64,000 bases of DNA from Enterococcus phage AllMyExes, in sequence record PV544171.1, one strand, 5' to 3'. The position numbers and the translations under genes were made by a program. A model generated the notes under the pieces. That model did not search any database and was not told the DNA's origin. It saw only the letters and a program-made list of their open reading frames with translations. This document shows positions 3,001 through 61,184 of this stretch, piece after piece; within the stretch, counting starts at the first letter, position 1, and every line of letters begins with the position of its first letter.

Positions 3001-4806
3001 ACATGGAGGCTAACTGATGAACATATAGAAGGTCAGATTAATGGTAAGGAAGGCGCATGGATTTATTCTCCAACAGCCCCTACTAATCCATCGCAAGGGC
3101 TTATATGGGTAGACTTGTCAAAAGTACCTAACCAACCTAAGCGTTGGGTAGATTCAGAAACTGGGTGGGTTGCATTAACACCAGAAGAGGTTAAAGATTT
3201 ACCTTGGGGTGAAGATGGCACAAACTTAGCTGACTGGGTAGCACAGGCAGAGCAGAGAATATCTTCCGATAGCATTATAAATACTGTACTAGGTTCTGAG
3301 GATTTTACTAGTGTGTTTGATACAAAGGCTAACACTACTGACCTAGATAACTTAGCTACCTATGAAGATTTAGACTCAATAAAAGAGGACTATAACCGAC
3401 TAATCAAAGAAGGCATAAACGGTATTGATTTTACCCCTTATGTAACTAACTCCGAACTACAACAGCTTAAAGACAGCTTTAACTTCTCTGTTCAACAAGC
3501 CGGAGGAGTTAACATGCTTAAAAACTCTTTAGGATTCTCTGGGTTAGACTTCTGGGATGGTACAGTAGGGAAGAACTTATTACCTAACTCTACTTGGAAT
3601 TTAGGTTTCGGTAGATGGGGTGGCGCTTCAATCGCTAGTTTTGAAATATTACCACCAGAAGACGACAAGCCTACAAGTCATATACTGGGTTCAATAGGTT
3701 CTCGTTCTTCTACTAAAGAAATAGGTAATAGACCCCACCCATTAAAAGTTAACTCTGGTGAAACGTATACAATAAGCTTTGATTATAAAGAAGAGGCATT
3801 GGCTTATGATAAGGACAGACCTATCCTTGTTGTTAGAAACTACCCTGATAAGGACACAGACCAATGGATGGAGTACTCAATAGAAGGTTGGGCAGTAATG
3901 GCTAACGGAAGCACTACTGACTTAACTGTTTGGAGACGTTTTACAAAAACATTTACAATAGGTACTAGTGGCTACTTAGATATTTTACCTAAAACTATAG
4001 TAGAGTCATGGACACACAGGTCTTTTTGGAGAGAGCTAAAAATAGAGGAAGGGTCACAAGCTACTACTTGGGTACCTAACAAGGAAGACGGGGCGTTTAC
4101 CGGTGGTATTGTTGAAACTACCCAAACAGAAGAACTAGCTAACCTCGGGTTCGGTTCGGGATTTGTTAGTTCTAAAAGACCTAGCTCTTCATTAACACAG
4201 TCTGTAGAACTACCTGAAATAGGTGCTAACCTTGAGTATTCACTATCTTTTTATATGAAGGTAACTACAGACAATCCTGTAGCCGACTTTAAATGTGGTA
4301 TTCGGGTTTATGAGGGGGATACTCTAACTTATACATTAGGCATAGAAGATGCAACACAGCCAATACCACTAGGGTTCCAACAATACAAGCTTGTGTTCAC
4401 TCCCACAAGTACCTCTACTAAAATAGAAATGTTTGTAGAGAATGGACAAGAGGCATCTGTTATTATATCAGGTATTATGTATAATATCGGGAATATACCT
4501 CTTAAATGGCAACCATATCCAAGTGAGATATACAATACGAATGTTAAGATTGATATTAATGGGGTAACTGTTAAAAACAATCAAACAGATGGGTACACAA
4601 TGATTACCCCCCAAGAGTTCTCAGGGTATTCTCGTATTGATGGTAACATAGAACGTATTTTCACTTTAAATGGGCAGGTAACAGAAGTTAAAATGCTAAA
4701 GGCTGAAAAACGTATAACTATGGAACCAGTATCTGTGTTTGCTATGAATACAGTAACAGATACAAAAAGAATTAGAGGTTGGGCATTTGTACCATCATTT
4801 GAATAA
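1..4806 (+). CDS. Giant tail/baseplate-associated structural protein (5'-partial). Three internal coiled-coil repeats of about 115 aa plus CBM-like beta domains.
   Basis: The reading frame is open from nt 1, so the gene starts upstream of the window. Three repeats of the unit (DADKANKVIADMS.DN.LTPSEK...EW..I..EYP...AE.Y.V....YTAKY..LE) lie at about nt 520-853, 889-1228 and 1879-2233. The C-terminal half is beta-rich, with modules ending in (K/E)IE.G..aT.W.P. Position is immediately upstream of the baseplate genes. Confidence 0.6.
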   Translation, partial: VLDDDGKPDLHDLLIHINPDGTYRTSMMNKEEDWRTLFEMTPDGRVKLRKQDSINIDGGIEISELGINNEGFVYLRNGDMDLEVRKDGIYSQGKLFTADVDLSDVYDKLNGLSIQIKETNGQLEIIANGVEEQNGKISELSTEITIVAGKVESKVTKTEVQDMIDSSFVDMSDAIKKAQEDADKANKVIADMSSDNRLTPSEKIDLLKEWDIIKNEYPSYLEQAETYEVDSKDYTAKYNSLELFVTPILADMESTSSVDGATLRKTFNSYYTARIALLNSISKKLKDGITEAMKKASQASLDATQAMADASQAKIDADNANKLISDIASDNKLTPSEKYQLKKEWDVIVKEYPTTIAQAEKYAVDTAEYTAKYKALELFVEPLFKDMDETSIVDGERLRATFSDYYASKIALLKEVTDSAKTELDAYGNKISVMETNITQTSEAITLLATRVQTVEDGVQSNKAQIEIQAEQISQKVTASEVKGIVDDSINNLTLGGTNLFVIKTQTAGLLNENDGTVGTAVDNSVVSDYIKVNQKTPYIATLYGNTGTNMIITDWYDKNRTFISGEAVADSGDFSKKYVSPENAVYARVSYKKANSVNIKFEAGTKATDYSPSWEDIKGDQTALEEYIKKVEEQAKKAQQDAENAKNDAENANNAIADMSNDNMLAPNEKKQILLQWEQIKTEYPINLDQATKFGVSSQQYTTAYNALDEYLKPILADMTTTSVVVGSTLRNTFNNYYDKRTTLLNRISDVAKNVADKAQETADTINDNLQNIGGYNYVGFSSGDNMLPRLMIKNVGYYTLGSSTTEFIDSMVAVKGDATTQPFDYTVGTSDKEIAGGGLADYRMKEVKEGQWLTASANVQVIGGGSARLAIYTLEGDNWVGSNSTPIQVSDGLKRVVAQRKVTGLTKGVLIRIESADTNVKEFRFGNVQLEVGIIPTPWKKSDIDIQEDINNVVQNIKTYTAWANDLQGLDFTREKVEGKTYMYVGTSMKDSDNYSDYTWRLTDEHIEGQINGKEGAWIYSPTAPTNPSQGLIWVDLSKVPNQPKRWVDSETGWVALTPEEVKDLPWGEDGTNLADWVAQAEQRISSDSIINTVLGSEDFTSVFDTKANTTDLDNLATYEDLDSIKEDYNRLIKEGINGIDFTPYVTNSELQQLKDSFNFSVQQAGGVNMLKNSLGFSGLDFWDGTVGKNLLPNSTWNLGFGRWGGASIASFEILPPEDDKPTSHILGSIGSRSSTKEIGNRPHPLKVNSGETYTISFDYKEEALAYDKDRPILVVRNYPDKDTDQWMEYSIEGWAVMANGSTTDLTVWRRFTKTFTIGTSGYLDILPKTIVESWTHRSFWRELKIEEGSQATTWVPNKEDGAFTGGIVETTQTEELANLGFGSGFVSSKRPSSSLTQSVELPEIGANLEYSLSFYMKVTTDNPVADFKCGIRVYEGDTLTYTLGIEDATQPIPLGFQQYKLVFTPTSTSTKIEMFVENGQEASVIISGIMYNIGNIPLKWQPYPSEIYNTNVKIDINGVTVKNNQTDGYTMITPQEFSGYSRIDGNIERIFTLNGQVTEVKMLKAEKRITMEPVSVFAMNTVTDTKRIRGWAFVPSFE

Positions 4807-11356: not shown

Positions 11357-13774
11357 GTGAGTAACTTTTATAAAAATATCCACCCTCTGTTGAGACGTGG
11401 TAAGAAACCTAACAAGTATGATGATACTAACTTTGCAGTGCTTAATGCGTTGAACTATGAATTAACTCAGGCAGAGCAGGAGACCATTGCTAGTAAGATT
11501 CATTCTTCATTAGAAACAGCTACAGGTGAGTACCTAGATACTTGGGGGGACTGGTTTGGTGTATATCGTAAAGATGATTGGAATGACGAATATTATAGAA
11601 AAAGAATTATAAGAGAACTTTTACTAAAAAGAGCCACAATTCCTGCTATCATTGATGCGTTATTGGATTTCCTTAACGACAATGATGCAGTCATCCAAAT
11701 ATATGAACCTTGGAGAAACATTTTCTATACAAATAAGTCAAAATTAAACGGTGACGACCATTTAATGGGTTACTACTACCGTTTTGCAATTATCGATATT
11801 TCAATTGATAGACCGTTTCCTCCTGAAATTGTAGAGATTATTAAGGCTTTCAAACCTGCGGGAGTTCTATTCTATCTAAGGCTAGACACAAGCTTAAGTA
11901 AGAATAAAACAACTGTAGAAAGTCCATATGTATACCTAGACGTTACGAATAAGACAGAATTAGAGTTCCTTAACGGTTTATACTATGACCTACGAGGTAG
12001 CATTAACCTGTCTGACCAACGTACACAAGTAGTAGAGAGTAATATCTTCCATACGAATAACTCTATGCTAAACGGGGAAGATGTGCTTGCAGGGGCATTT
12101 GACCACGGAAGAGGTTACATCCACTTAGCAAGTACGACATTGCTTGAGTACACACCAAAACCTACTGACTCTATGAGTGACTTAAAAACAGCTCTAGGAG
12201 AGTCAGGTGCTGACATGTATAATCAAACAAAAGAAAAGGACGGAAGAACAGCTTCTATTCAAGTACCTGCAACAAAGAATATCCACACTTTATACTCAAA
12301 CAGTACAGACTTTAGTGATTACGATTACTCGGGAAACCCTAACGTAATTGTAACAAATGCTAATACATTCAAATCAGGAACTGGCGGAACTCTTACCTAT
12401 AGCAGTGGGGAGTACACTGTTTTGATGGATGGGTCAGATAGATTAAATAAATTTAATACCGATGGGGGAAATAGTGTATACCTAGAAGATAAAGCGACCT
12501 ATACAATTTCTTGTGAAATGTATATCGGTTCTGACTATACTGGGAATGCCGACCAAGTATTTGTTAACTATGCATATCTTGATGGAGGTTACACTTTACT
12601 GCAAACAACAAGACTTCCTGCGGATGCTCCTAGGGATACTTGGATAACAGTAAAAGGAACGTCTACCATGAATTACCAAGGGAGGGTACCTAAAGTATTA
12701 TACTTGAGTTGGCAAACAGTTGCAAGTGATACTAACCCAACCGGTACGCTTAAGATGAGAAATATAAAAATTGAACGTGGGGAAATTAATACTCCGTATC
12801 AACCTAATTTATTAGGGGCACCTTGGTATTTAGGTAAATTTCCATTAGGAAAAAACCTTGCAGACCCTACAGTTAAGTTCCCAATAAACACGAGTGAATA
12901 TAAGTTATATCAAGGTGATATGTCGGAGCCGTTTAGAGTTGGGGAAACGTATACAGTTACTATTGAAGGTATAAAACCTACTAAAAATAAATTTGGTGTG
13001 TATAATGCGGGCACAGTTTTATTAGGATTTTTACATCCTGTAGAGGGTTTACCTAATACATGGACTGGGACATTTAAAGTACCTGCAATAAATGCAGAAT
13101 ACCCTAATAGACTGCAACTATACCAATTATCGAACGATAGTGACTATGGTACTGTTCAAATTGACTGGCTTAAGATTGAAAAAGGAGGTACTAGAACTCC
13201 TAACATTGACTCCTACAACTATGTGGGCACTCTAGTAGAAGATACAGAAAACCCTACAGTAGACCCAACTAAGTACACATGGACAGTATATGGAAGTATA
13301 ACAAATAAAAAAGCATATATAGTATTCGATGTTAAAACTTTTATCGAAGAAAATTATGCTATGGAATTTGAAAAACTTATTGCTGACCTAGGAGAAGACC
13401 AAGCATTAAATACTGTGTTTGAAAACTTTAATATCTCTACAGCACTTAAGGCTCTAGTAAGTCCAAGTTCACCAATTAGTTTCTCGGTTGAACTATACGA
13501 TTTTTCTACGAGTGCATGGCACAAGTTAAACACGGATAGTTTAGACTTACGTATGCGTACATTCAACTTAGTAGCAAACCGTATCACAGACTATCTAAAT
13601 GATTACAAGCTATTATTTGTTCGTTACGTGTTCGATAACGAAACAGATAAAGATGCAACGGTTGAACTAGACATGTTAAATGTACTGTTCAAATACCGTT
13701 TAGGTGAAGGGTACAGTATAGGACTACAATCATCTGTGGAATCACTAACGGAACTCGTTCCTATAGAAGGGTAA
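11357..13774 (+). CDS. baseplate/tail fibre structural protein with two CBM-like beta modules
   Basis: GTG start with AGGAGG RBS. Two modules end ...IKIERGEINTPYQPN and ...LKIEKGGTRTPN, the same module ending seen in the first ORF. Confidence 0.45.
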   Translation: MSNFYKNIHPLLRRGKKPNKYDDTNFAVLNALNYELTQAEQETIASKIHSSLETATGEYLDTWGDWFGVYRKDDWNDEYYRKRIIRELLLKRATIPAIIDALLDFLNDNDAVIQIYEPWRNIFYTNKSKLNGDDHLMGYYYRFAIIDISIDRPFPPEIVEIIKAFKPAGVLFYLRLDTSLSKNKTTVESPYVYLDVTNKTELEFLNGLYYDLRGSINLSDQRTQVVESNIFHTNNSMLNGEDVLAGAFDHGRGYIHLASTTLLEYTPKPTDSMSDLKTALGESGADMYNQTKEKDGRTASIQVPATKNIHTLYSNSTDFSDYDYSGNPNVIVTNANTFKSGTGGTLTYSSGEYTVLMDGSDRLNKFNTDGGNSVYLEDKATYTISCEMYIGSDYTGNADQVFVNYAYLDGGYTLLQTTRLPADAPRDTWITVKGTSTMNYQGRVPKVLYLSWQTVASDTNPTGTLKMRNIKIERGEINTPYQPNLLGAPWYLGKFPLGKNLADPTVKFPINTSEYKLYQGDMSEPFRVGETYTVTIEGIKPTKNKFGVYNAGTVLLGFLHPVEGLPNTWTGTFKVPAINAEYPNRLQLYQLSNDSDYGTVQIDWLKIEKGGTRTPNIDSYNYVGTLVEDTENPTVDPTKYTWTVYGSITNKKAYIVFDVKTFIEENYAMEFEKLIADLGEDQALNTVFENFNISTALKALVSPSSPISFSVELYDFSTSAWHKLNTDSLDLRMRTFNLVANRITDYLNDYKLLFVRYVFDNETDKDATVELDMLNVLFKYRLGEGYSIGLQSSVESLTELVPIEG

Positions 13775-33690: not shown

Positions 33691-36066
33691 TTGAAAATTC
33701 TATTCTTACAAGAGTATATTAGAGAAAATCATGTCCATAATGGAAAGAACGGACAAACAGTTGATTTTAAAAGAACAGAAATGGGTAAAAAACTCACGGG
33801 TCTGTTAAATACAATAGGGCTGACAGGTAGGGACTATGCTGTAGACTATGTGTACGACATGATTCCGGAAGTACAGAAAGTTAACCCTAGAACAGGTAAA
33901 CCAATTAAGTATAAGACACCTACGTTAAGACAGCGTAAAGAACCAGAGGAACGGTTACTCAGACGTTTAATGAAATACAAACCAGATATTATCATCCCAA
34001 TGGGGGAGATGGGTTGTAAAAATTTATTAGGAAGTACTTCTATCACAAAGAATAGAGGAGTACCAACTAAGAAAACAATTACGAATGAGAACATACTGAG
34101 AACGGCTGATGAGCAAGGACTTGAGGTAGACGAAGTAGTAGACTCTTTTGAAACTTGGGTACTACCTATGTTTAGTATGGAATACTGGACAGCTAACCCA
34201 AACATTGAGAACTTTATCATGGCGGATATTGATACATTGGGTAAGTTTGTTCAAGAAGGGGAACAAGCATTTATACCTAAAAAAGTAGATTACGAATTTG
34301 TTGATAACATTGAACGTGTAAGACAAATTTTCGGTTTTTTAGACAAAACGAAGCCAGTAACTGCATGGGACTTGGAGACAAATAGTTTACGTGGTGACTT
34401 ATTAGGAGCTAAGCCTCTTGTAATGTCTATGAGTTGGCTAGAGGGGCAAGGTGTGACTATACCGTTAGAACACCATGAAGCTAAATGGAGCCCAGAAGAA
34501 CTTAACGAAATATATGACTTATTTGAGAAGTTTTTAGCGGACAGACAGCAACCAAAAGTAGGACAAAATATCCAGTTCGATATTAGATTCTTAATGAACA
34601 CAAAAGGATTTACAGAGTTTGAAGACAACAGAGATACAAAAATTGCTTACTATCTAATTGTTTCTCAGAAAGTAGACACTTCAAAACGACTATCCGATAT
34701 TGCATATGAATTAACAGATATGGGAGGCTATGACGAACCGTTAGAGCAGTATAAAAAACAGTATAAAGAGGACTATATTGCTCGTAAGAAAGCAGAGATT
34801 GATGCTTTCAAAGAAGCTGAAAAAGAACGAGTAGAGGGTGAGTTCAAGATAGCAATGGATAGATATAAGCAAGAAGTTAAAGAAGCTAAGCTTATTGGTA
34901 AACCTACTAAGTCCATTATTAAACCAGTAAAAGAAAAAGTTGTAGTACCTAAGAAATCGGATATTAAACTTATTAATGAGATTGACGGTGGTAACTTTAA
35001 CTACGACTGGATTCCATTAGAAATTATGCACCCATATGCTAGTGGAGATGTCGATTGCTGTCTACGTATCTATAATGTTCTATATAAACGAATTGAGGAA
35101 CATCCTAAGATGTTGGGATTATGGTTGGGCTTTTATCCTAGACTAACAGCAACATTAGCACACATCGAGGCTTCTGGTGTTCTATTAGACTCTGAATACG
35201 CAGAATTAGTAGAGAACATCTATACAGAAGAAGAACATCGGTTGCTTAATGAAATTAGAAAGTTACCAGAAGTAAAAGAAGTAGAAGATGAACATATGAT
35301 GTTCTACAAAGAGGGGCTTAAAGAAATGACAAAGCCTGTCAAAGATAGAGATGCCTCTGTTGCCAGACTACGAGATAAATATAAAATTACTGATAGTGAG
35401 AACAAAGTACATTTTAAACCAAGTTCGTCTGAACATAAGGGTAGACTGCTATTTAAAGTAATGGGACTTACACTACCTTATGATAAAGAATCTATTAAAA
35501 AAGAAACTTTTGACAATGGGGTACCAGAACATCAGCTAACATGGAGAGATTATAAAACAGATAAACATGCACTAGCTTATATTGCAGAAAATTATCCAGA
35601 GGCTAAACATGTTGCTGAACTTTTGCTAGAGTATTCTAAAGTAAACACACTAAAAAATAACTTTGCTCAAAAGTTACCTAAATTAGCATCTAACAAAGAT
35701 GGCATGATTCATGGTTCATATAACAGTACAGGTACAGAATCTACACGATTGAGTGCAAACAACCCGAATATGCAACAATTAAGTAGTAAGGTTGGAGACC
35801 CTAGACGTTTTGACTATAAATATCCAATTAAACGTTTATTTAGAACAAGATTTGAGGGAGGCGGAATGCTACAACTAGACTACTCCGCCCTAGAAATGCG
35901 TATTTTAGGTTTGATTGCAAAAGATAAAGCAATGACACAAGCATTTATTAATGGTGAAGATATGCATGAGGCAACTGCATCTCTTGTATGGAAGTTACCT
36001 AAAGATAATGTACCAAAAGATATGCGACAACGTGCGAAGAGTGTCAACTTCGGCATCGCTTACGGT
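33691..36066 (+). CDS. family-A DNA polymerase, exon 1 (3'-5' exo plus polymerase through motif B)
   Basis: Motif A LQLDYSALEMRIL, motif B RQRAKSVNFGIAYG. The 5' splice site is placed after the U at 36066 (tacggU), which pairs with the intron segment GCCGU at 36077-36081 to form P1. Confidence 0.7.
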
Positions 36067-36505
36067 AAACACAATTGCCGTCTTGTAGCGTAAGCTACTC
36101 GATTAAACTTACCTAAACGGGCATAGCTGAATAATCAATAAGCTGATAAGAGAACCTAAGTCCTGAAAAGGATAGAGGCAATCCCGTGCTAAGTTGCTAT
36201 AGTAAAAGAAGAGTGTAGGTAGCTAGAATACTTACAGGGTAGTGACGTATGTGGTGTACTGGTAAGCACTGCATATCTGAACCTTTATAGGGTTATGTGT
36301 GAACTCCTCAAACCAGTAAAGAAAACACACTATAGCATAAATGCCGAACGACTATCGAAAAGTGAGTAGCTGTCGAGAGGACACCTACAATATAACTGAG
36401 TAGAGTACACCAACAGGTGGAAATGGTAAGGCTCCTAGAGTAACGACTAGGAGCGTGATATAGTCTAAGCCCCTAATAAATATCGGGAAACCGAGGGTAT
36501 AACTG
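36067..36505. other. group I self-splicing intron (IA2/T4-td-like core), 439 nt, no ORF
   Basis: It interrupts polA between motifs B and C. P1 is ACGGU with GCCGU. It ends in G (36505). Core-like stretches ACCTAAACGGG, CAATCCCGTGCTAAGTTG and AAATGCCGAACGACTATC resemble, as I recall them, conserved td-intron elements. No ORF of 60 aa or more lies inside. Confidence 0.65.
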
Positions 36506-37201
36506 GAAAGTCCTTTTTCAATTGCACCTAAGTTAGGTGTAACTGTAGAAGAAGCAGAGCGTATTTTTGAAGAGTACTTTGCAAGTAAGCCAAGTATTAA
36601 ACAATTTATTGAAGAGACACATCAATTTGCTCAACGTTATGGCTACGTAGAAACACTACAAGGACATCGTAGACTATTGCGTGACTCATTCTCTAAAGAT
36701 AAGAAAGTATTTAATGGCGCAATGCGTAAATCAGTAAATACAATCATTCAAGGAACTGGTGCCTACTTAACTAACCTATCAATGGTATACATTGACGAGT
36801 ATATCAGAAAACACAATAAGCGTTCACGTATTGTTATCACTGTACATGACTCACTTGTTATTGATTGCCCACGTGATGAAGTGGACGAGATGGCAAAAGT
36901 GGCTAAATATATTATGGAGAACTTGCCAATTGATTTCTTAATGATTGAGTGGGAAGGTAAAGAGATGCGTTACCCTATTGTGGCAGATGTAGAGATTGGG
37001 GAGAATTACAATGATATGGTTGATTATGATGCAGAAATTATCAACGAGTTTGCTTCTTACCGAGGATACGTAAAATACTTCAAAGACCAAGCTAAGATTA
37101 AAGATTACTATGATAACAAACTTATCTCAGAAGAGCAAAAAGACCAAGGTATCAAAGTTATCCAAGATGCAATAGAGTCATATAAACAAATGACAATTTA
37201 A
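36506..37201 (+). CDS. family-A DNA polymerase, exon 2 (motif C, C-terminus)
   Basis: After splicing the junction reads YG|ESPFSIAPKLGVTVEEA, the same 17-aa spacing to EEA as E. coli and Taq (YGMSAF..). Motif C VHDSLVIDCPRDE. An in-frame stop at 36500-36502 rules out any splice site further upstream. Confidence 0.65.
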   Translation, partial: ESPFSIAPKLGVTVEEAERIFEEYFASKPSIKQFIEETHQFAQRYGYVETLQGHRRLLRDSFSKDKKVFNGAMRKSVNTIIQGTGAYLTNLSMVYIDEYIRKHNKRSRIVITVHDSLVIDCPRDEVDEMAKVAKYIMENLPIDFLMIEWEGKEMRYPIVADVEIGENYNDMVDYDAEIINEFASYRGYVKYFKDQAKIKDYYDNKLISEEQKDQGIKVIQDAIESYKQMTI

Positions 37202-37901: not shown

Positions 37902-39191
37902 ATGAATTTTCAAGAACAATTACAACAACAATTAAAACAACAAAATATTGGAGAACGTGAAGCGGTAGACTACCCATCAAATCATTTAAAACATAAAGAA
38001 TTATACTTCCCTAAAGCAGAAAATGGTCAACCATCAACTCTATATGTACGTGTGTTACCTCCTGCAGTACCGGGAGAAAACTATAATGTTAGCGCTCGTG
38101 AGGCATTCTTAACAACTCGTAATCGTAATGGTAAAGATTTAAAGAGCAACTTTATCTTTTCAGAACACCCTAATGCAGAAGACATCTTAGAACAAGCTAT
38201 GATTCGTTGGAACGCAGAAAATCGTGTACCAAACCCTTATAGCCGTAATACAAAACCTCGTCAACGTTACTACGTTAACGTAGTGCAGTTAATTATTAAC
38301 CAACAAACAGGAGAAGTTAGCTACGAAACAGATTCTAATGGTCAGCTAATGGTTCGTTTACTTAAGTTACCACAAACAGCTTGCATGGCTATTAATGAGA
38401 GCTTAAGTAACCCAATGTTACGTCCACAGTTTTCACCTGATGTACCAGAAGAAGTAGCACAATACAGCTTCATCTCTTCTGCAGATGCGTTCCCTATTTC
38501 AATTACAAAACCACCACGTAGTAACAAACCTACTTCGTACAATGTACAAGTGATTAGTAATCGTAGCTTAGGTGCATTACCACAAGGTTGGGAAAACTTA
38601 TTAGAAGACTTGAAATACCAAGCTACACCTTCTGTAGAGTATAATCGTGAGTTTATTGAGTACTTTATTGATGTAGTAGACGGGAAAGAACCTGTGCATC
38701 AAGGAGCTCAAAGTCAAGGAACCCAAGCTCCACAATTTAATCAGCAACCAGTACAGCCTCAATTTAATCAACAGCCTGTACAACCACAATTTAACCAACA
38801 ACCTGTACAACCAATGCAACAAAATACTGGTTGGTCGCCACAGCAAAGCCAACCACAACAACCTGCTACAGGTTTTAACGCAACGAACATGGGGACACCT
38901 CCAAACATTAATGGAGGGTTTAACCAACAACCTGTACAACAACCTGTACAACAGCAACAACCGATGGGTTCTTTCAATGAACAACCAGTGACAGACCCTT
39001 CCACCATTTCTGATGCGGATATGCCTTTCAATATGCAGTCCATGCCTGATGTATCACCACAACAAAATGCTGTACCTGAGCAACCTGTGACTAATACACC
39101 AGAGCCAGTCAGCCAACCAGTTGTTAACCAACAGCCAAATAACACACCTAGTGTAGACGACCTATTAGCAGGTATGGTAGGCAACGTTTAA
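37902..39191 (+). CDS. hypothetical protein with Q/P-rich repeat linker (QFNQQPVQP x3) and C-terminal acidic/hydrophobic tip; SSB-like architecture, unproven
   Basis: Folded N-terminal region of about 290 aa, then a low-complexity Q/P/G region, ending DDLLAGMVGNV. Position after polA and before RecA. Confidence 0.35.
   Translation: MNFQEQLQQQLKQQNIGEREAVDYPSNHLKHKELYFPKAENGQPSTLYVRVLPPAVPGENYNVSAREAFLTTRNRNGKDLKSNFIFSEHPNAEDILEQAMIRWNAENRVPNPYSRNTKPRQRYYVNVVQLIINQQTGEVSYETDSNGQLMVRLLKLPQTACMAINESLSNPMLRPQFSPDVPEEVAQYSFISSADAFPISITKPPRSNKPTSYNVQVISNRSLGALPQGWENLLEDLKYQATPSVEYNREFIEYFIDVVDGKEPVHQGAQSQGTQAPQFNQQPVQPQFNQQPVQPQFNQQPVQPMQQNTGWSPQQSQPQQPATGFNATNMGTPPNINGGFNQQPVQQPVQQQQPMGSFNEQPVTDPSTISDADMPFNMQSMPDVSPQQNAVPEQPVTNTPEPVSQPVVNQQPNNTPSVDDLLAGMVGNV
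38733..38813 (+). repeat. 3 x 27-nt in-frame tandem repeat encoding QFNQQPVQP; codons differ between copies
   Basis: cag caa cca gta cag cct / caa cag cct gta caa cca / caa caa cct gta caa cca. Confidence 0.6.
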
Positions 39192-41953: not shown

Positions 41954-42916
41954 ATGAAGATAGACGAGATAAGCAAATTAGAATTGCCTAATCTATTTGG
42001 AAAATTCCTTGTGGTAGAGACTATTTCGGATGGGTACACTGGAACCGTATCTGGTCACTATAACTACGAGATAGACCAAAAATCTGAGGAAACTTATATT
42101 TACCCTGTATTTTGGAATGATAAGCTTAACAAATTTATTAGGTCAGATGAATTAGTTGTATACACTAATAAAAATAAAGTATACTATGTTTGTAAAACAA
42201 CTATAGACCCATATAATCATGCAGTAGTAGATGAGCTCACAGTAGAGGAAGGTATGGACAAAGATAAGCGTACCCTTCAAGCGTTTAAACTTTTTGTAAA
42301 TGACCTATTCTCATTTGGTAGCTACAATATCTTTCTAACAGGTAACCTATCATTAGAAAATAACCCTGATATTGTTCTAGTTAGTAGTGTATCATTAAAC
42401 AAACAGACCGCTAAAATGTACACAGAACGGACATTAGAACTAACTGCTACGATTCTACCAGAGGGTGCTACAAACAAAAAAGTTAGTTTCTCAGTAGATA
42501 AACCAGAACTATTAGGGTTAACAGTCTCTGACAATAAAGCAACTGTCACAAGTAAAGATAAGGCAGGTACTGCAATTGTTACCGTAACTACTGAGGACGG
42601 AGACCACACTGACAAGTGTACAATTCAGATAGAAGAATACATAAAAGTTACAGGAATTAATGTTAGTGGAGAATCTGCTTTAGAAAAAGGCAAGACGTAC
42701 AAATTTACTGCTAGTATTGTACCTGATACTGCAACGAATCCTAAATTTACTTGGTCTTCTAGTAATGACACCATAGCTAGTGTTAACGCAAGTGGTGACG
42801 TTGTAGCTTTAGCATTAGGTGAAGCAGACATTATAGCAACAACTGAGGAAGGTAGCCATGTAGGTAAGGTACATGTTACCGTATCAGACCCAGAACCAGT
42901 AGAACCAACTGAATAA
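41954..42916 (+). CDS. Ig-like (Big_2) domain structural/decoration protein
   Basis: Two Big_2-like modules (LTATILPEGATNKKVSFSV...ATVTSKDKAGTAIVTVTTEDG and FTASIVPDTATNPKFTWSS...). The N-terminal domain is paralogous to 42937..43380. Confidence 0.5.
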   Translation: MKIDEISKLELPNLFGKFLVVETISDGYTGTVSGHYNYEIDQKSEETYIYPVFWNDKLNKFIRSDELVVYTNKNKVYYVCKTTIDPYNHAVVDELTVEEGMDKDKRTLQAFKLFVNDLFSFGSYNIFLTGNLSLENNPDIVLVSSVSLNKQTAKMYTERTLELTATILPEGATNKKVSFSVDKPELLGLTVSDNKATVTSKDKAGTAIVTVTTEDGDHTDKCTIQIEEYIKVTGINVSGESALEKGKTYKFTASIVPDTATNPKFTWSSSNDTIASVNASGDVVALALGEADIIATTEEGSHVGKVHVTVSDPEPVEPTE

Positions 42917-42936
42917 CATAGAAAAGAGGAAAGAAA

Positions 42937-43380
42937 ATGGCTAAAGAAATATTAAATATTGAAGACCTGTTAAAACCAGAGACACTAGAAGTAGCAATAG
43001 ATGGTAAATACCTTATTGTACCAACATTGTCGGATGGGTTTACAGGTACAGTAGCAGGTGGATATGCATATGCTGTTACAAAAAAAGGAACAGACTATAC
43101 AGTTAACGAATTAATTTATAACAAAAAGGATAATACATTTAAACCTTCTGATGAACCGATTATTATAACTGATGATAATGAAATATTCTTCATTACTCGT
43201 ACATTAGAAGACCCATATAATTACCCTGTAGTTGCTACAGAGAAACTTAAAACTAAAGATGTAAAAGAAAAACAAGTTTTACAAGCGTTCTTAGCATTTG
43301 CTGATGACAGATTTAAGTTAGGTGTTTACAATGTGTTCTTAGCAGATGAACCATTTGTGTATGGGGACAAAACAGAATAG
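42937..43380 (+). CDS. paralog of the N-terminal domain of the Big_2 protein
   Basis: Shares LxVxT(I/L)SDG(Y/F)TGTV(S/A)G.Y.Y and DPYN(H/Y).VV...L...(K/V).K..LQAF..F..D.F..G.YN(I/V)FL with 41954..42916. Confidence 0.45.
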   Translation: MAKEILNIEDLLKPETLEVAIDGKYLIVPTLSDGFTGTVAGGYAYAVTKKGTDYTVNELIYNKKDNTFKPSDEPIIITDDNEIFFITRTLEDPYNYPVVATEKLKTKDVKEKQVLQAFLAFADDRFKLGVYNVFLADEPFVYGDKTE

Positions 43381-43390
43381 TTTCATTATA

Positions 43391-43420
43391 AGAGACCCGT
43401 TAAGGTCTCTTTTTTTTTGT
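43391..43420 (+). terminator. rho-independent terminator (AGAGACC/GGTCTCT plus T9)
   Basis: Read directly. Confidence 0.65.
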
Positions 43421-43428
43421 ATATAGTG

Positions 43429-43457
43429 TTGACAATGTTGTAGTTTAGTTATATACT
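43429..43457 (+). promoter_or_regulatory. sigma-A-type promoter TTGACA-N17-TATACT
   Basis: After the terminator at 43391-43420 and before the gene at 43487. Confidence 0.55.
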
Positions 43458-43486
43458 ATACTTATACTGTATAAGGAGGTAACCAC

Positions 43487-43792
43487 ATGAACGACAATAA
43501 GGAAAAATGTATTAAACAAGGAATACGAAATACTTATAAAGGGTACGATATTTTATTAGATGAAGAGAATGGATTTTTCTATGTTAGCGTACTTGACCCA
43601 GATGGCAAAGAAATCATTAGTGGGTTTGTAGAGGCGGATAAACCTATTGAAGAATACTATAAAGAGCTCCTAAGTAAATGCGACCAAGACATATTATTCA
43701 AAGACCTTTTAAGACCCTTAAATGGACGTAGAGACACTGAACGTACAGACATACGTTTTTTTAAAAAGAGATGGTGGGGTATAAGTAAATGA
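43487..43792 (+). CDS. hypothetical protein
   Basis: Preceded by promoter and terminator signals. Its last codons lie within copy A of the 44-bp repeat. Confidence 0.35.
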   Translation: MNDNKEKCIKQGIRNTYKGYDILLDEENGFFYVSVLDPDGKEIISGFVEADKPIEEYYKELLSKCDQDILFKDLLRPLNGRRDTERTDIRFFKKRWWGISK

Positions 43793-43817
43793 CAAAGATA
43801 AAACTTATTACAAAAAA
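43774..43817 (+). repeat. 44-bp direct repeat, copy A (gtggggtataaGtaaatgacaaagataaaacttattacaaaaaa)
   Basis: 43/44 identical to copy B at 44587-44630. Together they bracket the methyltransferase gene. Confidence 0.7.
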
Positions 43818-44577
43818 AAATAAGAGAGGTCAGCACAATATGGGAAAAAAGTTAGAATTAAATAAGATTCACAAAATTTCTTGGGAGAAGGGGTTTTCAA
43901 GCCTAGACGACGGTTCAATAGACCTAATTATAACGTCACCTCCATATAATCTAGGAGGCAGATTTCATACAGGTAACACTGTATATAAAGCTTACAACAC
44001 ATACAATGATAATATCCCAGAAAAAGAATATCAGCAAAACCAGATAGATTTCTTAAATGCTTGTTACGACAAATTAGAGGAAAATGGGAGCTTGTTTTAC
44101 AACCATAAACCTAGAATAAAAAATGGGGTGTGTACTCACCCATTGGAGTGGATACTTCAATCAAAATTTATTTTGAAACAAGAGATTGTTTGGAGGAATG
44201 GAGGTCAGAATTTCGATAAAATAAGATTTTACCCTCTAACCGAGAGAGTATATTGGCTAGTTAAGAATCCAAAAACAAAACTGCATAATGCTTTAGGTTT
44301 ATCTGATATATGGGAGTTTAAGAACAGAAAGAGACATAAAATCCATAAAGCAACATTCCCAATTGAGCTACCCAAATCAATAATTTCATGTTTTCCTAAC
44401 GCTAAAACAATACTAGACCCATATATGGGTGTTGGTACGACTGCAAAAGCTGTAATTGAATTGAATAAGCAAGATGGTGGAAACAGAGATTTCTTAGGAT
44501 TTGAAATTGACGAACTTTATATAAATGATTTTTATAAAGAAATTACAGAAGATAACAAACTTATTGATAATAACTAG
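43789..44577 (+). CDS. beta-class DNA methyltransferase (N6-adenine or N4-cytosine), orphan
   Basis: Motif IV DLIITSPPY precedes motif I DPYMGVGTT. The conserved core probably starts at the ATG at 43840 (MGKKLELNKI), with a GAGAGG RBS. The upstream in-frame extension MTKIKLITKKN is copied from the next gene. Confidence 0.6.
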   Translation: MTKIKLITKKNKRGQHNMGKKLELNKIHKISWEKGFSSLDDGSIDLIITSPPYNLGGRFHTGNTVYKAYNTYNDNIPEKEYQQNQIDFLNACYDKLEENGSLFYNHKPRIKNGVCTHPLEWILQSKFILKQEIVWRNGGQNFDKIRFYPLTERVYWLVKNPKTKLHNALGLSDIWEFKNRKRHKIHKATFPIELPKSIISCFPNAKTILDPYMGVGTTAKAVIELNKQDGGNRDFLGFEIDELYINDFYKEITEDNKLIDNN

Positions 44578-44586
44578 AGATAAACA

Positions 44587-44630
44587 GTGGGGTATAATTA
44601 AATGACAAAGATAAAACTTATTACAAAAAA
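44587..44630 (+). repeat. 44-bp direct repeat, copy B (RBS plus first 10 codons of gene 44602)
   Basis: See copy A. Confidence 0.7.
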
Positions 44631-45555
44631 GAACACCCAAGGCTATGTCATGAACACGCTGTTACGCAGGTTCTATAAGGACATTGTAGATGTAGAATTT
44701 CTTAATAAATTCAATCTACCTGATATTCACAACCATATAGGAGAATATGATGCTGTTATTATAGCAGGGTTTCCTTTCTTTGAAAGCCAACGAGGTGCAT
44801 TAGATACAGCATTATCATCTATGGATAACCCATTTAGCAAGGTGTACCATTTAGCAACATTTGGAGACACCTATCGTAATGAGGGTAGTTTTCGTTCATT
44901 TGTAGATGAAGTTGTAAGCCCTGTTGGACACTTTTCAGAGTTGATAATCGACTTAGTTAAGTTCACTAACACAGGTACAAAAGAGGACGAGGATAAGGTA
45001 ATAGCGCTTGCTAAAACTATGCTAGACTTTTCTAAAGATATTATAGAAGAGACAGACAACTACAATCGTTATGAAGTAACAGACAGAACTATCTCTTGGG
45101 TTCTTCTTGTAGATTTGCTTGGAGAAAATCTTTATAAGGTAGCAGAACCTTGTAAAGAGCTAGGCACTATCTTGAAAGAACAAGAAGTACTTGTAGATGC
45201 CTTGAACATAAATATGCAGGACTATGTGCTAAGAACAATAGGGAAGATGTCTGCAAACGTCATTAATGGAACAGTGGTTTGTTTTGGTTATGCAGAACAG
45301 CATGTTAACGAAGTAGCCCATAAATTAATTAATTTTTATAAGTCACATAACTATCAAAAAGTTATTGTCTTTATTGGTAGACACACAAAAGGTGACGACA
45401 TGTTTAGTGTAAGGAGCTATGGTGTGAATGCCGGAGAGGTTGTCTATAAAGTTCATAATGGTAAAGGGAAAGATACAACGGCAACCGTCTTCTTAGGTAA
45501 ACCTAGTGAAGCTGTAAATAACACACTGTTAAGTGTGCTTTCTGAAATCTTATAG
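44602..45555 (+). CDS. hypothetical protein (the N-terminus and RBS are duplicated upstream of the MTase)
   Basis: Starts MTKIKLITKKN, identical to the first 11 codons of the 43789 ORF. Confidence 0.4.
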   Translation: MTKIKLITKKNTQGYVMNTLLRRFYKDIVDVEFLNKFNLPDIHNHIGEYDAVIIAGFPFFESQRGALDTALSSMDNPFSKVYHLATFGDTYRNEGSFRSFVDEVVSPVGHFSELIIDLVKFTNTGTKEDEDKVIALAKTMLDFSKDIIEETDNYNRYEVTDRTISWVLLVDLLGENLYKVAEPCKELGTILKEQEVLVDALNINMQDYVLRTIGKMSANVINGTVVCFGYAEQHVNEVAHKLINFYKSHNYQKVIVFIGRHTKGDDMFSVRSYGVNAGEVVYKVHNGKGKDTTATVFLGKPSEAVNNTLLSVLSEIL

Positions 45556-45565
45556 TTTAACTTTG

Positions 45566-45574
45566 TGGTATAAT
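45566..45574 (+). promoter_or_regulatory. extended -10 element TGgTATAAT
   Basis: Upstream of the TTG-start gene at 45609. The -35 is weak. Confidence 0.35.
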
Positions 45575-45608
45575 AAAGATAGATAAATTTTGATAGGAGT
45601 GTAAATTT

Positions 45609-46892
45609 TTGAAAAACAACGAACCTTTAGAGAAGTTATTAGACAAATTAGATGAACCAAGAATTTTACAAACAATTATTATAGGTAGTTTACAACGGAG
45701 CTTTAATCGAGTACACGTTGGTAAATTTAATAAACTAGCACAGGAGTTTGACTTAGATAAGGAGAACCTGTATAGCTTAAAGGCACTAGTTAAGGAAATT
45801 GAAGAAGATAAAGAGTTACACGAACTTTACGAAGCTAGCATGGCAGGCAAAATTACGCTAGAGGCTGTTCGTAAAGTATTGTTACAAGATGATAAATCAT
45901 CGTTTGATGTACTGTCTTCTTACGTAGTAGAGAATCAAGCAGTGCTAGCCCGTAACCGAGAGTTCGGTAAGTTACAACGTGAGGGAGCTTATCTTGACCA
46001 TTTAATTAGTGGTTTGAAAACATACTTATTAGCTGAACTAAAAGACATGTCTAGTTTAAAATATATCAATAAAAATTTAAAGGCACCGAAAGTATCCTCA
46101 GACCGAGAACTTATTCTGTGCCTATCCGACTGGCATATTGGTGCTTTTGTTAATAACATTGACACAGGTGGATACAACTTTGAAATCTTTAAAGAACGAC
46201 TTGAAAAGTTATTAGAAGAAGTATTCCAAGTGGCTATGGAACAGGATATTAAGAAAATTCATGTTTACCATATTGGGGATATTATTGAACACATTAATAT
46301 GCGTAATGTTAACCAAGCATTTGAAGCGGAGTTTCCTGCTACGGAACAGATTGCTAAAGGAATTAGAGTTCTTGCTGATACACTTAATTTACTAGCTAAG
46401 GCAGAATTTGAAGTGTCTTTCGGTATGGTTGGTGGTAACCACGACCGTTTCCAAGGTAACAAAAATGATAAAATTCATAATGATAATGTGGCTTATCTTG
46501 TAGTAGACCAACTTCATTTCTTACAAGAATTAGGGGCGTTAAACAAAGATATTAAACTTGTAGACAACAGAAGTGATGTTTATAGTTTTAAAGATACAGT
46601 TGCAGGGAAACGTATTAAAGTAACGCATGGTGACACTGAGGGCAAAAAAGTAGATGTTAAAATCCCTAAACATATCAAAGATGAAGTTATTGACTACCTA
46701 ATCATGGGACACATTCATACAACACGTATTATTCAAGAAGACTTTTCAAGATTCCATGTGTATGTTGGCTCTCCTATGGGGGCAAATAACTACTCAGCAG
46801 AGAATAACTTGCCAACAACAAGCCCTGCACAGCTAATTATGGTATTAGACCCTGAGCGTGATACACCACAATTCATGCCAGTATTCTTATAG
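45609..46892 (+). CDS. calcineurin-like metallophosphoesterase (Mre11/SbcD-like fold)
   Basis: LSDWHIG, GDIIEH, GNHDR and GHIHT motifs. Confidence 0.55.
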   Translation: MKNNEPLEKLLDKLDEPRILQTIIIGSLQRSFNRVHVGKFNKLAQEFDLDKENLYSLKALVKEIEEDKELHELYEASMAGKITLEAVRKVLLQDDKSSFDVLSSYVVENQAVLARNREFGKLQREGAYLDHLISGLKTYLLAELKDMSSLKYINKNLKAPKVSSDRELILCLSDWHIGAFVNNIDTGGYNFEIFKERLEKLLEEVFQVAMEQDIKKIHVYHIGDIIEHINMRNVNQAFEAEFPATEQIAKGIRVLADTLNLLAKAEFEVSFGMVGGNHDRFQGNKNDKIHNDNVAYLVVDQLHFLQELGALNKDIKLVDNRSDVYSFKDTVAGKRIKVTHGDTEGKKVDVKIPKHIKDEVIDYLIMGHIHTTRIIQEDFSRFHVYVGSPMGANNYSAENNLPTTSPAQLIMVLDPERDTPQFMPVFL

Positions 46893-46903
46893 GAGGTACC
46901 TGT

Positions 46904-47278
46904 ATGGAAGGTAATTTAGTTTATATTTTATTGGCTATTGCATATGTAGGTGAAGGTATAACTGCCTTTACTAATACTAAGCGTAAAGAAAGATACATGA
47001 TTGAAGAAGGAGAGGCTCCTTTGCCACGTAGCTCTTATGTATTTTTAGGTATTAACTACCTTTTAAGAATAGCTATAGCAATTTCTCTTATCTTCATCAT
47101 ACCAACTAGCTTGCAACTTAACGTAACAGGTATTGCTTTGTTCACACTAATGGTATTTGTAGTTCCTTTTATAGCAAGAATTATCGAAGTTGTTATTAGA
47201 ACTGCAATTGTTCGTTATGTTCAAAAACAATATATTAAGCAGTTAGAAGAACGAAAAGGTAAAAGAGAGACTAACTAG
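46904..47278 (+). CDS. small membrane protein
   Basis: Several hydrophobic segments. A terminator follows. Confidence 0.4.
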   Translation: MEGNLVYILLAIAYVGEGITAFTNTKRKERYMIEEGEAPLPRSSYVFLGINYLLRIAIAISLIFIIPTSLQLNVTGIALFTLMVFVVPFIARIIEVVIRTAIVRYVQKQYIKQLEERKGKRETN

Positions 47279-47288
47279 TCTCTTTTTT
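47265..47288 (+). terminator. rho-independent terminator (GAGAGACT/AGTCTCT plus T6)
   Basis: Read directly. Confidence 0.55.
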
Positions 47289-47316
47289 GCTATATTGAAT
47301 AATGAGGTGACTAAGT

Positions 47317-47937
47317 ATGAATTTTACAGAAGTAATAAGCCCTAATGGGGAGACATCATTAATAGATGTAAACAACCCACCAACATTAATCAGACGTGGG
47401 GTCTTATCTATTAAAACAAAGGTTAATAATGAAGTGAAGGAAACCCCTGTCTATATTGTTGAACTAGCTGAGGAGCTAACGGGTACTGATGTAGTATCTG
47501 TCTATAAAGTAAAAGAGATTGGAGATTCTATCCAAAAAGACTACATTGAAGAAAAAGTGACCCCTAGGTTCAAAAGCACAACATATCTGGGTGAACTAGC
47601 GCAAAAGATTAAAGGACGGTCGATAAAGGAACAACGAAGAGTTGAAACAAAACCACCGTTATTCCTAGCCCCAGTAGTTAATGGAATTGATACATTCACA
47701 GGAATCGAAGGTAAGGGTTTCTACGAACGTGAAGAGGACAGACATATTCTACTACCTGATGGAAAACCGGGCATAGCCTATGGAGATAATACAGGGGTTT
47801 TTATCGGTTTGAGCTCGATTAAGTGGGACAAGGCATATGTAGACGTGGAGTCTATAACAAAGGGTTACTTGTCGCAGAAACAGATATGGTTTAACCTAGA
47901 TGGTCAAAGACCACAATTTAGAAGTGAGACACTATAA
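47317..47937 (+). CDS. hypothetical protein
   Basis: ORF only. Confidence 0.3.
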   Translation: MNFTEVISPNGETSLIDVNNPPTLIRRGVLSIKTKVNNEVKETPVYIVELAEELTGTDVVSVYKVKEIGDSIQKDYIEEKVTPRFKSTTYLGELAQKIKGRSIKEQRRVETKPPLFLAPVVNGIDTFTGIEGKGFYEREEDRHILLPDGKPGIAYGDNTGVFIGLSSIKWDKAYVDVESITKGYLSQKQIWFNLDGQRPQFRSETL

Positions 47938-58153: not shown

Positions 58154-58197
58154 TTTCTCACTAGAATTAATTAGTGAGAAAAAAATTAAATAAAACT

Positions 58198-58256
58198 ATT
58201 GACAAATAACAAAACATGATGTAAACTAAGTTTATAAGATAAAGAAGAGGAGAGAT
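58198..58256 (+). promoter_or_regulatory. early promoter/5'UTR cassette copy 1 (TTGACA-N17-TAAACT, palindrome AAACTAAGTTT, RBS GAGGAGAG)
   Basis: 59 nt identical to copy 2. Confidence 0.6.
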
Positions 58257-58813: not shown

Positions 58814-59602
58814 ATGTTTAGTGTTGTTAAGGCTGACAGCTATGTTAAATCAGACATAGAAATGTATGAATTTAAGAATGTAAAAAGTTTGGCATTGACT
58901 AAGAAAGAGAAAGAACTATGGTCAGGCAAAATTGCTAAATATGCTAATGAGTTTATTGTAGATGCTTATGGAGACTACCATGGTAATAAAATACCTGAAA
59001 TAGATGTTGTAATCAATGGTAAGCTAAGAAGAACCCTAGGTTCTTTTGTCCAATTCACTAACACAAACAAACACTGTATAGAGATAAATGGTAGGTTTGT
59101 TAAAGAAGTTATTCTATTACAAGAAACACCCTTAGCTCAAAGAGCGCTTGATATTTTAATGGATGTAGCCAGACATGAAGCTATCCACTATACACTTTGT
59201 TATTTAAATAGTTTAAGTGGGGGAGACCTACCAACGTTCAACTACCATGACGGTGGGGAAGACTTTGAAAAAGATTTATGTTTGACAGGAACTTCACCTA
59301 GTGGCGCTACGAAAGAAGAGTATATTTATAGTTCTTTTACACTAGGAGCCATCAGATGCCGACACCATAGTACTTGCCCTGAATGTGGGTTGGAAACATA
59401 CATGTATACACGAGGACGGTACTATTGCTATAATGGGTGTGTAGGGGATAACGGTAGAAAAATTATATTTAGACCACAAGGTGATATTGCAATTTATATT
59501 GATGAACCAAAATCTAAAGCTAAACCAAAAGTAGAGGAAGCTCTGAAAGACTATAAAGGAGCGTTAAAGCTACCTTATACAGGTACAGAAGAAATAAAAT
59601 AA
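58814..59602 (+). CDS. SprT-like zinc metalloprotease domain protein with Zn ribbon
   Basis: HEAIH (HExxH), then CPECG...CYNGC (Cys4 ribbon). Confidence 0.4.
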   Translation: MFSVVKADSYVKSDIEMYEFKNVKSLALTKKEKELWSGKIAKYANEFIVDAYGDYHGNKIPEIDVVINGKLRRTLGSFVQFTNTNKHCIEINGRFVKEVILLQETPLAQRALDILMDVARHEAIHYTLCYLNSLSGGDLPTFNYHDGGEDFEKDLCLTGTSPSGATKEEYIYSSFTLGAIRCRHHSTCPECGLETYMYTRGRYYCYNGCVGDNGRKIIFRPQGDIAIYIDEPKSKAKPKVEEALKDYKGALKLPYTGTEEIK

Positions 59603-59618
59603 AAAAATAGTTAAATGT

Positions 59619-59677
59619 ATTGACAAATAACAAAACATGATGTAAACTAAGTTTATAAGATAAAGAAGAGGAGAGAT
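59619..59677 (+). promoter_or_regulatory. early promoter/5'UTR cassette copy 2 (identical to copy 1)
   Basis: Exact 59-nt repeat. Confidence 0.6.
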
Positions 59678-60756: not shown

Positions 60757-60824
60757 GAAACACAATATTGCGACCCTCATTAATTGGGGGTTGCAAATTA
60801 TATTATTTTTTTTAAATAAACCTA

Positions 60825-60881
60825 TTGACATTTAACAAACTATAAGGTAAACTAAGTTCATAAGATAAAGGAGGGAAACAA
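60825..60881 (+). promoter_or_regulatory. early promoter cassette copy 3 (TTGACA-N17-TAAACT, AAACTAAGTTC, diverged)
   Basis: Same architecture, about 75% identical. Confidence 0.5.
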
Positions 60882-61184
60882 ATGAGTCAAGTAAGCAAAC
60901 ATGGAGAAAAACGTGTACGTGAACGTGTAGGAGTGAATAAGAGTTCGGTAGACCGTCAGTTTTACTTAGCGTTAGAACGAGGATACCGACAACATGAGCT
61001 AACAGGACGTTTAAAGAAATGGGTAGTATCAAGAGTATTTAACTCTAAGTACCCTCAAACATGTATTTTATATAATGGTAAATGCTTCATTGTTAGCAGT
61101 GAAGGTACACTAGTTACTGTGTTAAACATCCCAAGTAATTTACTAAAAGATTTTGCAAAATTATCTAAGAAAAGAGGAAAATAA
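60882..61184 (+). CDS. basic hypothetical protein
   Basis: Driven by cassette copy 3. Confidence 0.35.
   Translation: MSQVSKHGEKRVRERVGVNKSSVDRQFYLALERGYRQHELTGRLKKWVVSRVFNSKYPQTCILYNGKCFIVSSEGTLVTVLNIPSNLLKDFAKLSKKRGK

Follow-up and report, generated by a model that had tools for sequence, protein, structure and literature searches.

Orphan DNA methyltransferases that act against host restriction are familiar from bacteriophages, among them the Dam enzymes of T4 and P1, those of Bacillus SPbeta and phi3T, and that of lactococcal phi50, which captured the LlaI methylase domain. Extra genes set between other phage genes are likewise familiar as the morons of lambdoid phages, independent transcription units with their own promoter and terminator, and repeated sequences in virulent phages are known both as the PeSL regulatory cassettes of T4, which are dispersed promoter stem-loop modules, and from deletions between short direct repeats in T7 and T4. 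Here we analyse a locus of Enterococcus phage AllMyExes (PV544171.1) at which a solitary DNA methyltransferase (MTase) gene lies between two copies of the translation start of the downstream gene, gp071. The stretch of DNA analysed, 64,000 nucleotides (nt) long and called the window below, belongs to an Enterococcus Kochikohdavirus (EF24C-like; Herelleviridae, Brockvirinae) and is 98.9% identical to phage 53 (OQ420427) over 42900-45600. The account that we consider likely as a whole is that the MTase was gained together with a duplication of the gp071 start, that the resulting cassette had a single origin and spread by recombination, and that its presumed role is anti-restriction.

Gain of a methyltransferase cassette within a duplicated gp071 start

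The cassette and its repeats consist of the following parts, where filled genomes are those that carry the insert.

43774-43817 and 44587-44630, + strand: two copies of the 44-mer GTGGGGTATAA(G/T)TAAATGACAAAGATAAAACTTATTACAAAAAA, 43/44 identical
43774-43820, + strand: left repeat copy, with the duplicated ribosome-binding site (RBS; GTGGGG), ATG (43789) and first 10 codons of gp071
43812-43820, + strand: A9 homopolymer at the left junction (A9, A8 or A7 among filled genomes)
43821-44586, + strand: unique inserted segment of 766 bp, made up of a leader with a Shine-Dalgarno (SD) sequence, the MTase open reading frame (ORF) and a short trailer
43822-43829, + strand: SD of the MTase, AAGAGAGG, within the cassette leader
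43840-44577, + strand: orphan beta-class DNA methyltransferase, 245 amino acids (aa), probably N4-cytosine-specific, with a TSPPY motif IV
44533-44565, + strand: possible degenerate third copy of the core of the repeat, within the 3' end of the MTase gene, a 27/33 match to 44593-44622 with 2 gaps
44572-44586, + strand: 15-nt 'B patch', AACTAGAGATAAACA, comprising the last MTase codon, the TAG stop and the trailer
44587-44633, + strand: right repeat copy, with the functional RBS, ATG (44602) and first 10 codons of gp071

The first-pass annotation of the window had described a 44-bp direct repeat at this locus, and its coordinates, 43/44 identity and 813-nt spacing were all confirmed, as was the N-terminus MTKIKLITKKN that it gives in common to the ORFs at 43789-44577 and 44602-45555. 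The repeat extends to 47 nt, of which 45 are identical (43774-43820 against 44587-44633). With up to 3 mismatches allowed, it matched these two places alone in the 64 kb and was never matched in 100 dinucleotide-preserving shuffles. This rules out a general promoter or RBS motif, an alternative that the annotation had itself raised. The pair is also the sole example in the window of a long repeat that brackets a gene. A search of 42500-46000 gave no Rfam match at E≤1, and RNA folding of the repeat regions gave nothing significant. gp071 is a core Herelleviridae gene with homologues in Schiekvirus (53%) and in Listeria, Staphylococcus and Bacillus Herelleviridae, and since the alignments begin at residue 1 in Schiekvirus and at residues 3-4 in the Listeria and Bacillus Herelleviridae, the ATG of the right repeat copy (44602) is the genuine gp071 start.

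Insertion of the MTase upstream of the 44602 gene with duplication of its start had been suggested from the window itself, together with the prediction that some relatives would have one 44-mer and no MTase. The relatives bear this out: in 35 (29 different phage names) of the 37 related records in GenBank the site is empty, 812-813 bp shorter, with a single repeat copy and no MTase. The contrary pattern, in which all relatives carry both copies in diverged form, is thus not what is found. The span measures 1885-1888 bp in the 35 empty records as against 2701 bp in the window, and alignment to EF24C resolves the difference into a 766-bp insert in the window with a 47-nt overlap at the junction. 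Five filled genomes are available, namely the window, phage 53, vB_Efa29212_3e (3e below), the Logan assembly ERR11509239 and the metagenome contig OJJD01000051 (OJJD below; the same contig as ERZ1743127 NODE_51), and their junctions are identical in all five independent assemblies. Two outgroup phages, Schiekvirus EFGrKN and Listeria phage LP-083-2 (Pecentumvirus), have a small gene that overlaps the gp071 homologue, and no MTase. Because the outgroups have an uninterrupted, overlapping junction, the empty state is ancestral and the cassette is a gain. A scan of IMG/VR for the repeat core returned one unrelated 8-kb contig and no Kochikohdavirus, no description of the cassette was found in the literature (the phage 3e paper never mentions methylation), and over the 49 kb compared with EF24C there was no other indel with a long flanking duplication.

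The 43840 ORF matches Pfam PF01555 (N6_N4_Mtase) with E 1.3e-30 and 107.5 bits (cut-off 26.7) over profile positions 1-219 of 221, and phrog_67 with 5e-37. Its motifs stand in the permuted, beta-class order that had been assigned to it, IV then I, with TSPPY at residues 32-36 near the N-terminus and DPYMGVGTT at residues 193-201 towards the C-terminus, and all of the residues that are invariant in 18 homologues (S33, P35, Y36, D193, P194, G197, G199, T200 and T201) are present. The best match among solved structures is N4CMT (PDB 8S9M/8S9N; E 4e-26 over residues 8-236), with MboIIA at 2e-7 and CcrM at 9e-7. The SPPY motif of N4CMT has been contrasted with the DPPY of CcrM (PMC10406627). Because of its TSPPY motif IV and of N4CMT as its best solved relative, the enzyme is predicted from sequence to be more likely N4-cytosine-specific than adenine-specific; weak NCBIfam matches are to adenine enzymes and lie far below their cut-offs. 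The other family members, 56-81% identical in the aligned set, occur in varied phage replication and nucleotide-metabolism contexts. The gene is an orphan: gp070 and gp071 adjoin each other in empty relatives and outgroups, and the insert holds a single ORF, with no cognate endonuclease gene adjacent.

That the MTase has its own RBS and ATG at 43840 was also upheld. Its homologues begin at the equivalent ATG, the left-copy ATG is out of frame in phage 53 and mutated in 3e and Logan, and all five filled genomes have the same 738-nt, 245-codon ORF from its own ATG, with the SD AAGAGAGG and the ATG intact throughout. In exact look-ups the 245-aa enzyme was found in phage 53 and OJJD only, and the 262-aa form that would start at the left-copy ATG was not on record. 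These comparisons allow the phage 53 record to be corrected: its MTase is labelled adenine-specific and MboIIA-like despite the SPPY motif and N4-cytosine relatives and looks N4-cytosine-type, and its gp071 start is an annotation error, placed 16 codons downstream of the conserved start. In the same record, a homologue of the EF24C sigma factor is labelled 'asparagine synthetase'.

The left junction lies within an A-run, with phage sequence ...ACAAAAAA followed by cassette AAATAAGAG..., which may also be written ...ATTACAAAAAA followed by AAATAAGAGAGG.... The leader, AATAAGAGAGGTCAGCACAATATG, and the trailer are each unique in the window, and an internal origin of either was rejected for that reason. 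The GC content of the insert (32.5% against 35.8% overall; 7th percentile) is no compositional outlier, and the insert contains no + strand ORF besides the MTase, no − strand ORF longer than 48 aa and no terminal inverted repeats that we could find. The right junction is more complex. The B patch matches in position and length the last 15 nt before the single repeat copy of empty sites, where the common allele is TTTTAAAGAGAGACA, 9/15 identical to AACTAGAGATAAACA, and an EF24C-type variant also exists; it stands 5' of the right copy in 5/5 filled genomes. The 15-16 nt of gp070 that immediately precede the repeat (43758-43773 and the equivalents in loci L001-L017) are hypervariable among phages that are otherwise 97-99% identical, with three alleles that give proteins of 101, 98 or 90 aa and stop positions that differ relative to the gp071 start. 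Upstream of the patch, the degenerate copy at 44533-44565 reached a local alignment score of 33, compared with maxima of 29 in 1467 windows of the same genome and 32 in 3000 shuffles. Part of the C-terminal extension TEDNKLIDNN, which the 17 aligned homologues lack, is encoded there, and the copy has native methyltransferase sequence in its first third (FYKEI). It may, and the observation is suggestive only, mark microhomology used in the original join.

Spread between backbones, a second insertion and BG143

The cassette is less diverged than its flanks in 10/10 pairs of filled genomes. Between the window and OJJD there are 0/769 differences in the cassette, 46/1408 in the left flank and 22/1900 in the right flank (p=6e-7), and between the window and 3e there are 6/769, 80/1407 and 43/1900, respectively. 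A single cassette has therefore been placed recently on different backbones by homologous recombination. The right flanks of the filled genomes, BG143 and Riverwalk form one haplotype, 97.4-99.3% identical among themselves and 93-95% identical to others, whereas mosaicism in the left flank reaches as far as the repeat. Genes for a UvsX-like recombinase, a single-stranded DNA-binding protein (SSB), gp46/47-like exonucleases and a RusA-like resolvase are all present in the phage genome.

The GenBank phage collection has a single further close copy of the MTase, in Schiekvirus EfsSzw-1 (MH791397), at a different site. The two genes are 81% identical in protein and 78.5% in DNA, and they are homologous in the ORF body only, without common ends. 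The EfsSzw-1 insertion (3441-4244) lies in the replication module exactly at a TAATG stop/start overlap, has GGTACACTAA as a 10-nt duplication on either side, and is missing from 30/31 relatives as an indel of ~793 bp; it is independent of the Kochikohdavirus insertion. Both of its duplicate copies differ at ~3 positions from the empty-site sequence, GGTGTCAAATAA, and ~2 kb downstream of the MTase there is a gene for a homing endonuclease.

Judged by the junction identity classes of the 35 empty records and by the seven empty sites that were read directly, the AACTAGAGATAAACA patch occurs among empty sites in BG143 alone, the closest empty relative, where gp070 is cut to 90 aa. The 3' end of gp070 is hypervariable in the other relatives as well, with proteins of 97, 98 or 101 aa: these are the lengths of the 19 variants listed from 3 of 12 related clusters, and the 12 cluster representatives have 98 or 101. 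The exact 90-aa protein was not in a collection of 15 billion proteins, and a metagenome scan for filled genomes whose left side has the B patch, or for further B-type empty sites, gave only another ordinary filled genome. The right flank of BG143 clusters with those of the window, phage 53 and OJJD; it differs from phage 53 at 14 positions in 1950 nt (a hand count from the variable-site table), and the filled 3e differs at 35 in 1900 nt. Because the patch and the 90-aa gp070 are unique and the right flank groups with filled genomes, we lean slightly towards BG143 being the descendant of a filled genome that lost the MTase, with the patch as the scar. Against this, the deletion would need to have been in exact register with the common allele, and the argument from the tree is weakened because recombination patches are visible. 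Such register would be expected if the patch were instead the native allele of the original target, in which case the true duplication would be ~62 nt and the left patch would later have been replaced by recombination. The early suggestion that the cassette is poised for precise loss by recombination between the repeats accordingly stays plausible, with support that is indirect and a BG143 that is ambiguous.

Operon setting, proposed history and alternatives

The genes and transcription signals around the cassette, the latter from a consensus scan only, are as follows.

43390-43411, + strand: intrinsic-terminator-like hairpin and T-run (8-bp stem with 4 GC pairs, then TTTTTTTGTA), ending the upstream gp069 unit
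43429-43457, + strand: sigma-70-type promoter-like site TTGACA-17-TATACT (11/12), the best match to a promoter within 42800-47400
43487-43792, + strand: gp070 homologue, 101 aa, function unassigned, phrog_20613, whose TGA stop overlaps the left-copy ATG (ATGA)
44602-45555, + strand: gp071 homologue, 317 aa, phrog_1850, annotated 'exopolyphosphatase', with a weak DHHA1 match
45609-46892, + strand: gp072 homologue, which follows in the operon and is a metallophosphoesterase-type exonuclease

The site at 43429-43457 is likely to be the promoter of a gp070-MTase-gp071 operon, and no + strand terminator was detected between it and gp071. Since the sole strong promoter and the sole + strand terminator both sit upstream of gp070, the cassette is without transcription signals of its own.

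On this evidence a foreign 766-bp MTase segment entered the gp070-gp071 operon of a Kochikohdavirus where the two genes are translationally coupled, at an ATGA overlap in EF24C-type genomes. The insertion duplicated the 44-47-nt initiation region of gp071 (SD, ATG and 10 codons), the right copy keeping gp071 expressed and the left copy now preceding the MTase. We propose that the duplication was kept because an insertion into overlapping genes would otherwise have disabled gp071, and that the joins were of an illegitimate or microhomology type, given the A-run at the left junction, the complexity of the right one and the difference in duplication length between the two events. The cassette would be transcribed from the operon promoter upstream of gp070, and the MTase translated from its own SD and the ATG at 43840 and, in the window, possibly also from the left-copy ATG as a 262-aa form. 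Having arisen once, the cassette has since moved between diverged backbones by homologous recombination, presumably catalysed by the phage UvsX-type machinery during co-infection, with the flanks and possibly the repeat copies as the homology; the same homology would make the cassette losable. By methylating phage DNA, the MTase would allow escape from a host restriction system of the same specificity.

The filled genomes differ in the A-tract and in the start codon of the left copy, as listed here.

Window and OJJD: A9, left start ATG, in frame with the MTase to give the 262-aa N-extended form
Phage 53: A8, left start ATG, opening a 21-codon upstream ORF that overlaps the MTase start
Logan: A9, left start ATT, no upstream start
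3e: A7, left start ATT, no upstream start

This variation bears on the idea, raised in the first-pass annotation, that the locus is an on/off switch for methylation, working through reversible excision and re-insertion between the repeats or through slippage in the A7-A9 tract. Direct repeats do bracket the gene, the tract is A9, A8 or A7 among filled genomes, and whether translation from the left-copy ATG runs into the MTase depends on its length. However, the SD and ATG of the MTase lie downstream of the tract and are intact in the five genomes, and the tract therefore cannot act as a switch: its length alters only an optional upstream start or upstream ORF and cannot silence the enzyme. A single genome could moreover not reverse a deletion, a site-specific recombinase and an invertible element are both lacking, the left ATG has simply been mutated to ATT in 3e and Logan, and the homopolymer differences may be assembly errors. 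With no reversible mechanism in evidence, we set the switch aside as very unlikely. We give even less credence to a transposon-like or homing-type element for which the repeat would be a target-site duplication or homing site. An insertion bracketed by a direct duplication of its target, a related gene at a second site in another genus with a bracketing duplication of its own, and the homing endonuclease gene near the EfsSzw-1 copy would all suit such an element, but the insert has no transposase, integrase or endonuclease ORF and no terminal inverted repeats, duplications of 47 and 10 nt are unlike transposase footprints, and the two cassettes share the ORF body only and no common ends. Among specific candidates, a transposable element or insertion sequence was rejected for want of a transposase ORF and inverted repeats and because the duplication is 47 nt in one case and 10 nt in the other, a homing-endonuclease-mobilised gene or intron because the insert contains no endonuclease ORF and 42500-46000 no Rfam match at E≤1, a slipped-strand, phase-variable MTase because the A-tract lies upstream of the SD and ATG of the enzyme, and a moron because the consensus scan found no promoter or terminator belonging to the cassette.

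Equally improbable, and strongly disfavoured, is an MTase that was ancestral to Kochikohdavirus with both repeat copies, the empty sites being repeated deletions. Recombination between the 47-nt repeats would yield exactly the single-copy empty site observed, these phages encode recombination enzymes, and BG143 may be a loss derivative; the junctions of the sister genus Schiekvirus and of Listeria Pecentumvirus are nevertheless uninterrupted and overlapping, only 2/37 GenBank records are filled, the cassette is much younger than its flanks and the repeat copies are near-identical rather than diverged. A rival that we take more seriously, as a minority view, keeps the same history and gives the MTase a different use, in gene regulation, packaging or other counter-defence, or makes it a neutral passenger. 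Orphan methyltransferases are regulatory in some systems, these data reveal no cognate restriction system in a host and the gene is dispensable in most relatives. Set against this, positive selection is suggested by how rapidly an intact ORF has spread horizontally among backbones, and a sporadic, host-range-like distribution is typical of anti-restriction methyltransferases. The preferred account, gain with duplication followed by spread and an anti-restriction benefit, has points to answer as well. The right junction has no clean duplication edge, given the B patch and the possible third copy, and a simple one-step model is insufficient. No close homologue was found in 185,579 bacterial species genomes (best 51%) and the DNA of the nearest phage copy is only 78.5% identical; with no donor found, the original joining event cannot be reconstructed. 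Purifying selection could partly account for the low divergence of the cassette, and the A-tract length differences may be homopolymer sequencing errors.

A broader possibility, which we put forward tentatively, is that the duplicated initiation region serves as portable homology arms, that the MTase is a recombinase-free cassette gained and lost through UvsX-type recombination, and that insertion at a gene junction with duplication is a general route for accessory genes in Herelleviridae. Co-infecting relatives with a single 47-mer could then gain the cassette and any carrier could lose it, and the Schiekvirus case, the tract of identity confined to the cassette and BG143 would be footprints of this route.

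Other features of the window and comparison with known systems

Elsewhere in the window, a 436-nt insertion (36070-36505), not found in EF24C, interrupts the DNA polymerase gene, with a 3-nt junction overlap and ORFs at 33691-36093 and ~36677-37201. The insertion matches Rfam RF02958 'drum RNA' at 36237-36333 on the + strand (46.5 bits, gathering score 43; E 2e-7) and is probably an intron-like element. A family of 77-nt direct repeats is found at 58180-58256, 59601-59677 and 60806-60882, spaced 1.2-1.4 kb apart, the later copies being 94% and 73% identical to the first; each contains a TTGACA...TAAACT promoter-like site and an RBS, AAGAGGAGAG, and the copies form promoter/5'-untranslated region modules before successive genes that recall PeSL-type cassettes of T4. 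In the baseplate region (EF24C gp039), a 1528-nt segment (12134-13661) stands in place of 511 nt of EF24C, a replacement and not a simple insertion, and at 38730-38810 there are three tandem 27-nt coding repeats (CCACAATTTAATCAGCAACCAGTACAG and variants) that are 81-85% identical.

The gp071 locus offers a clean natural case in which a lytic, tightly packed phage genome gains an accessory gene inside an operon with its neighbours unbroken, and filled, empty and possibly scarred alleles are all present among sequenced phages. Enterococcus Kochikohdaviruses are used in phage therapy, where a mobile MTase could alter host range on restricting strains and could pass between the members of a cocktail during co-infection.

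The MTase resembles the phage orphan anti-restriction enzymes in being solitary, without a cognate endonuclease, sporadic among relatives, carried by a virulent phage and intact in its catalytic core; it differs from them in its predicted N4-cytosine type, which is less commonly discussed than Dam or 5-methylcytosine enzymes, and in that no bacterial donor was identified. With Adineta vaga N4CMT (PDB 8S9M/8S9N; PMC10406627) it shares an SPPY sequence in motif IV and a circularly permuted arrangement of the motifs, although the homology is only moderate, over residues 8-236, and the base modified by the phage enzyme is a prediction from its sequence. Like a lambdoid moron, the cassette is an extra gene of obscure origin and likely benefit to the phage that lies between genes adjacent in relatives; unlike a moron, it rides in an operon and is embedded by duplicating the translation start of the downstream gene. 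As in the repeat-mediated shuffling of virulent phages, short direct repeats bracket an accessory gene that is exchanged among backbones, but in contrast to PeSLs the repeat is a site-specific duplication of the RBS and 10 codons of one gene, present nowhere else in the window. The direct duplication of the target on both sides of the insert recalls the target-site duplications of transposons, from which it is set apart by the lack of a transposase and inverted repeats and by its length, 47 nt being far above typical and 10 nt being found at the second insertion. The cassette is thus a well-documented case of known kinds, an orphan methyltransferase and a repeat-flanked accessory gene, rather than a new system.

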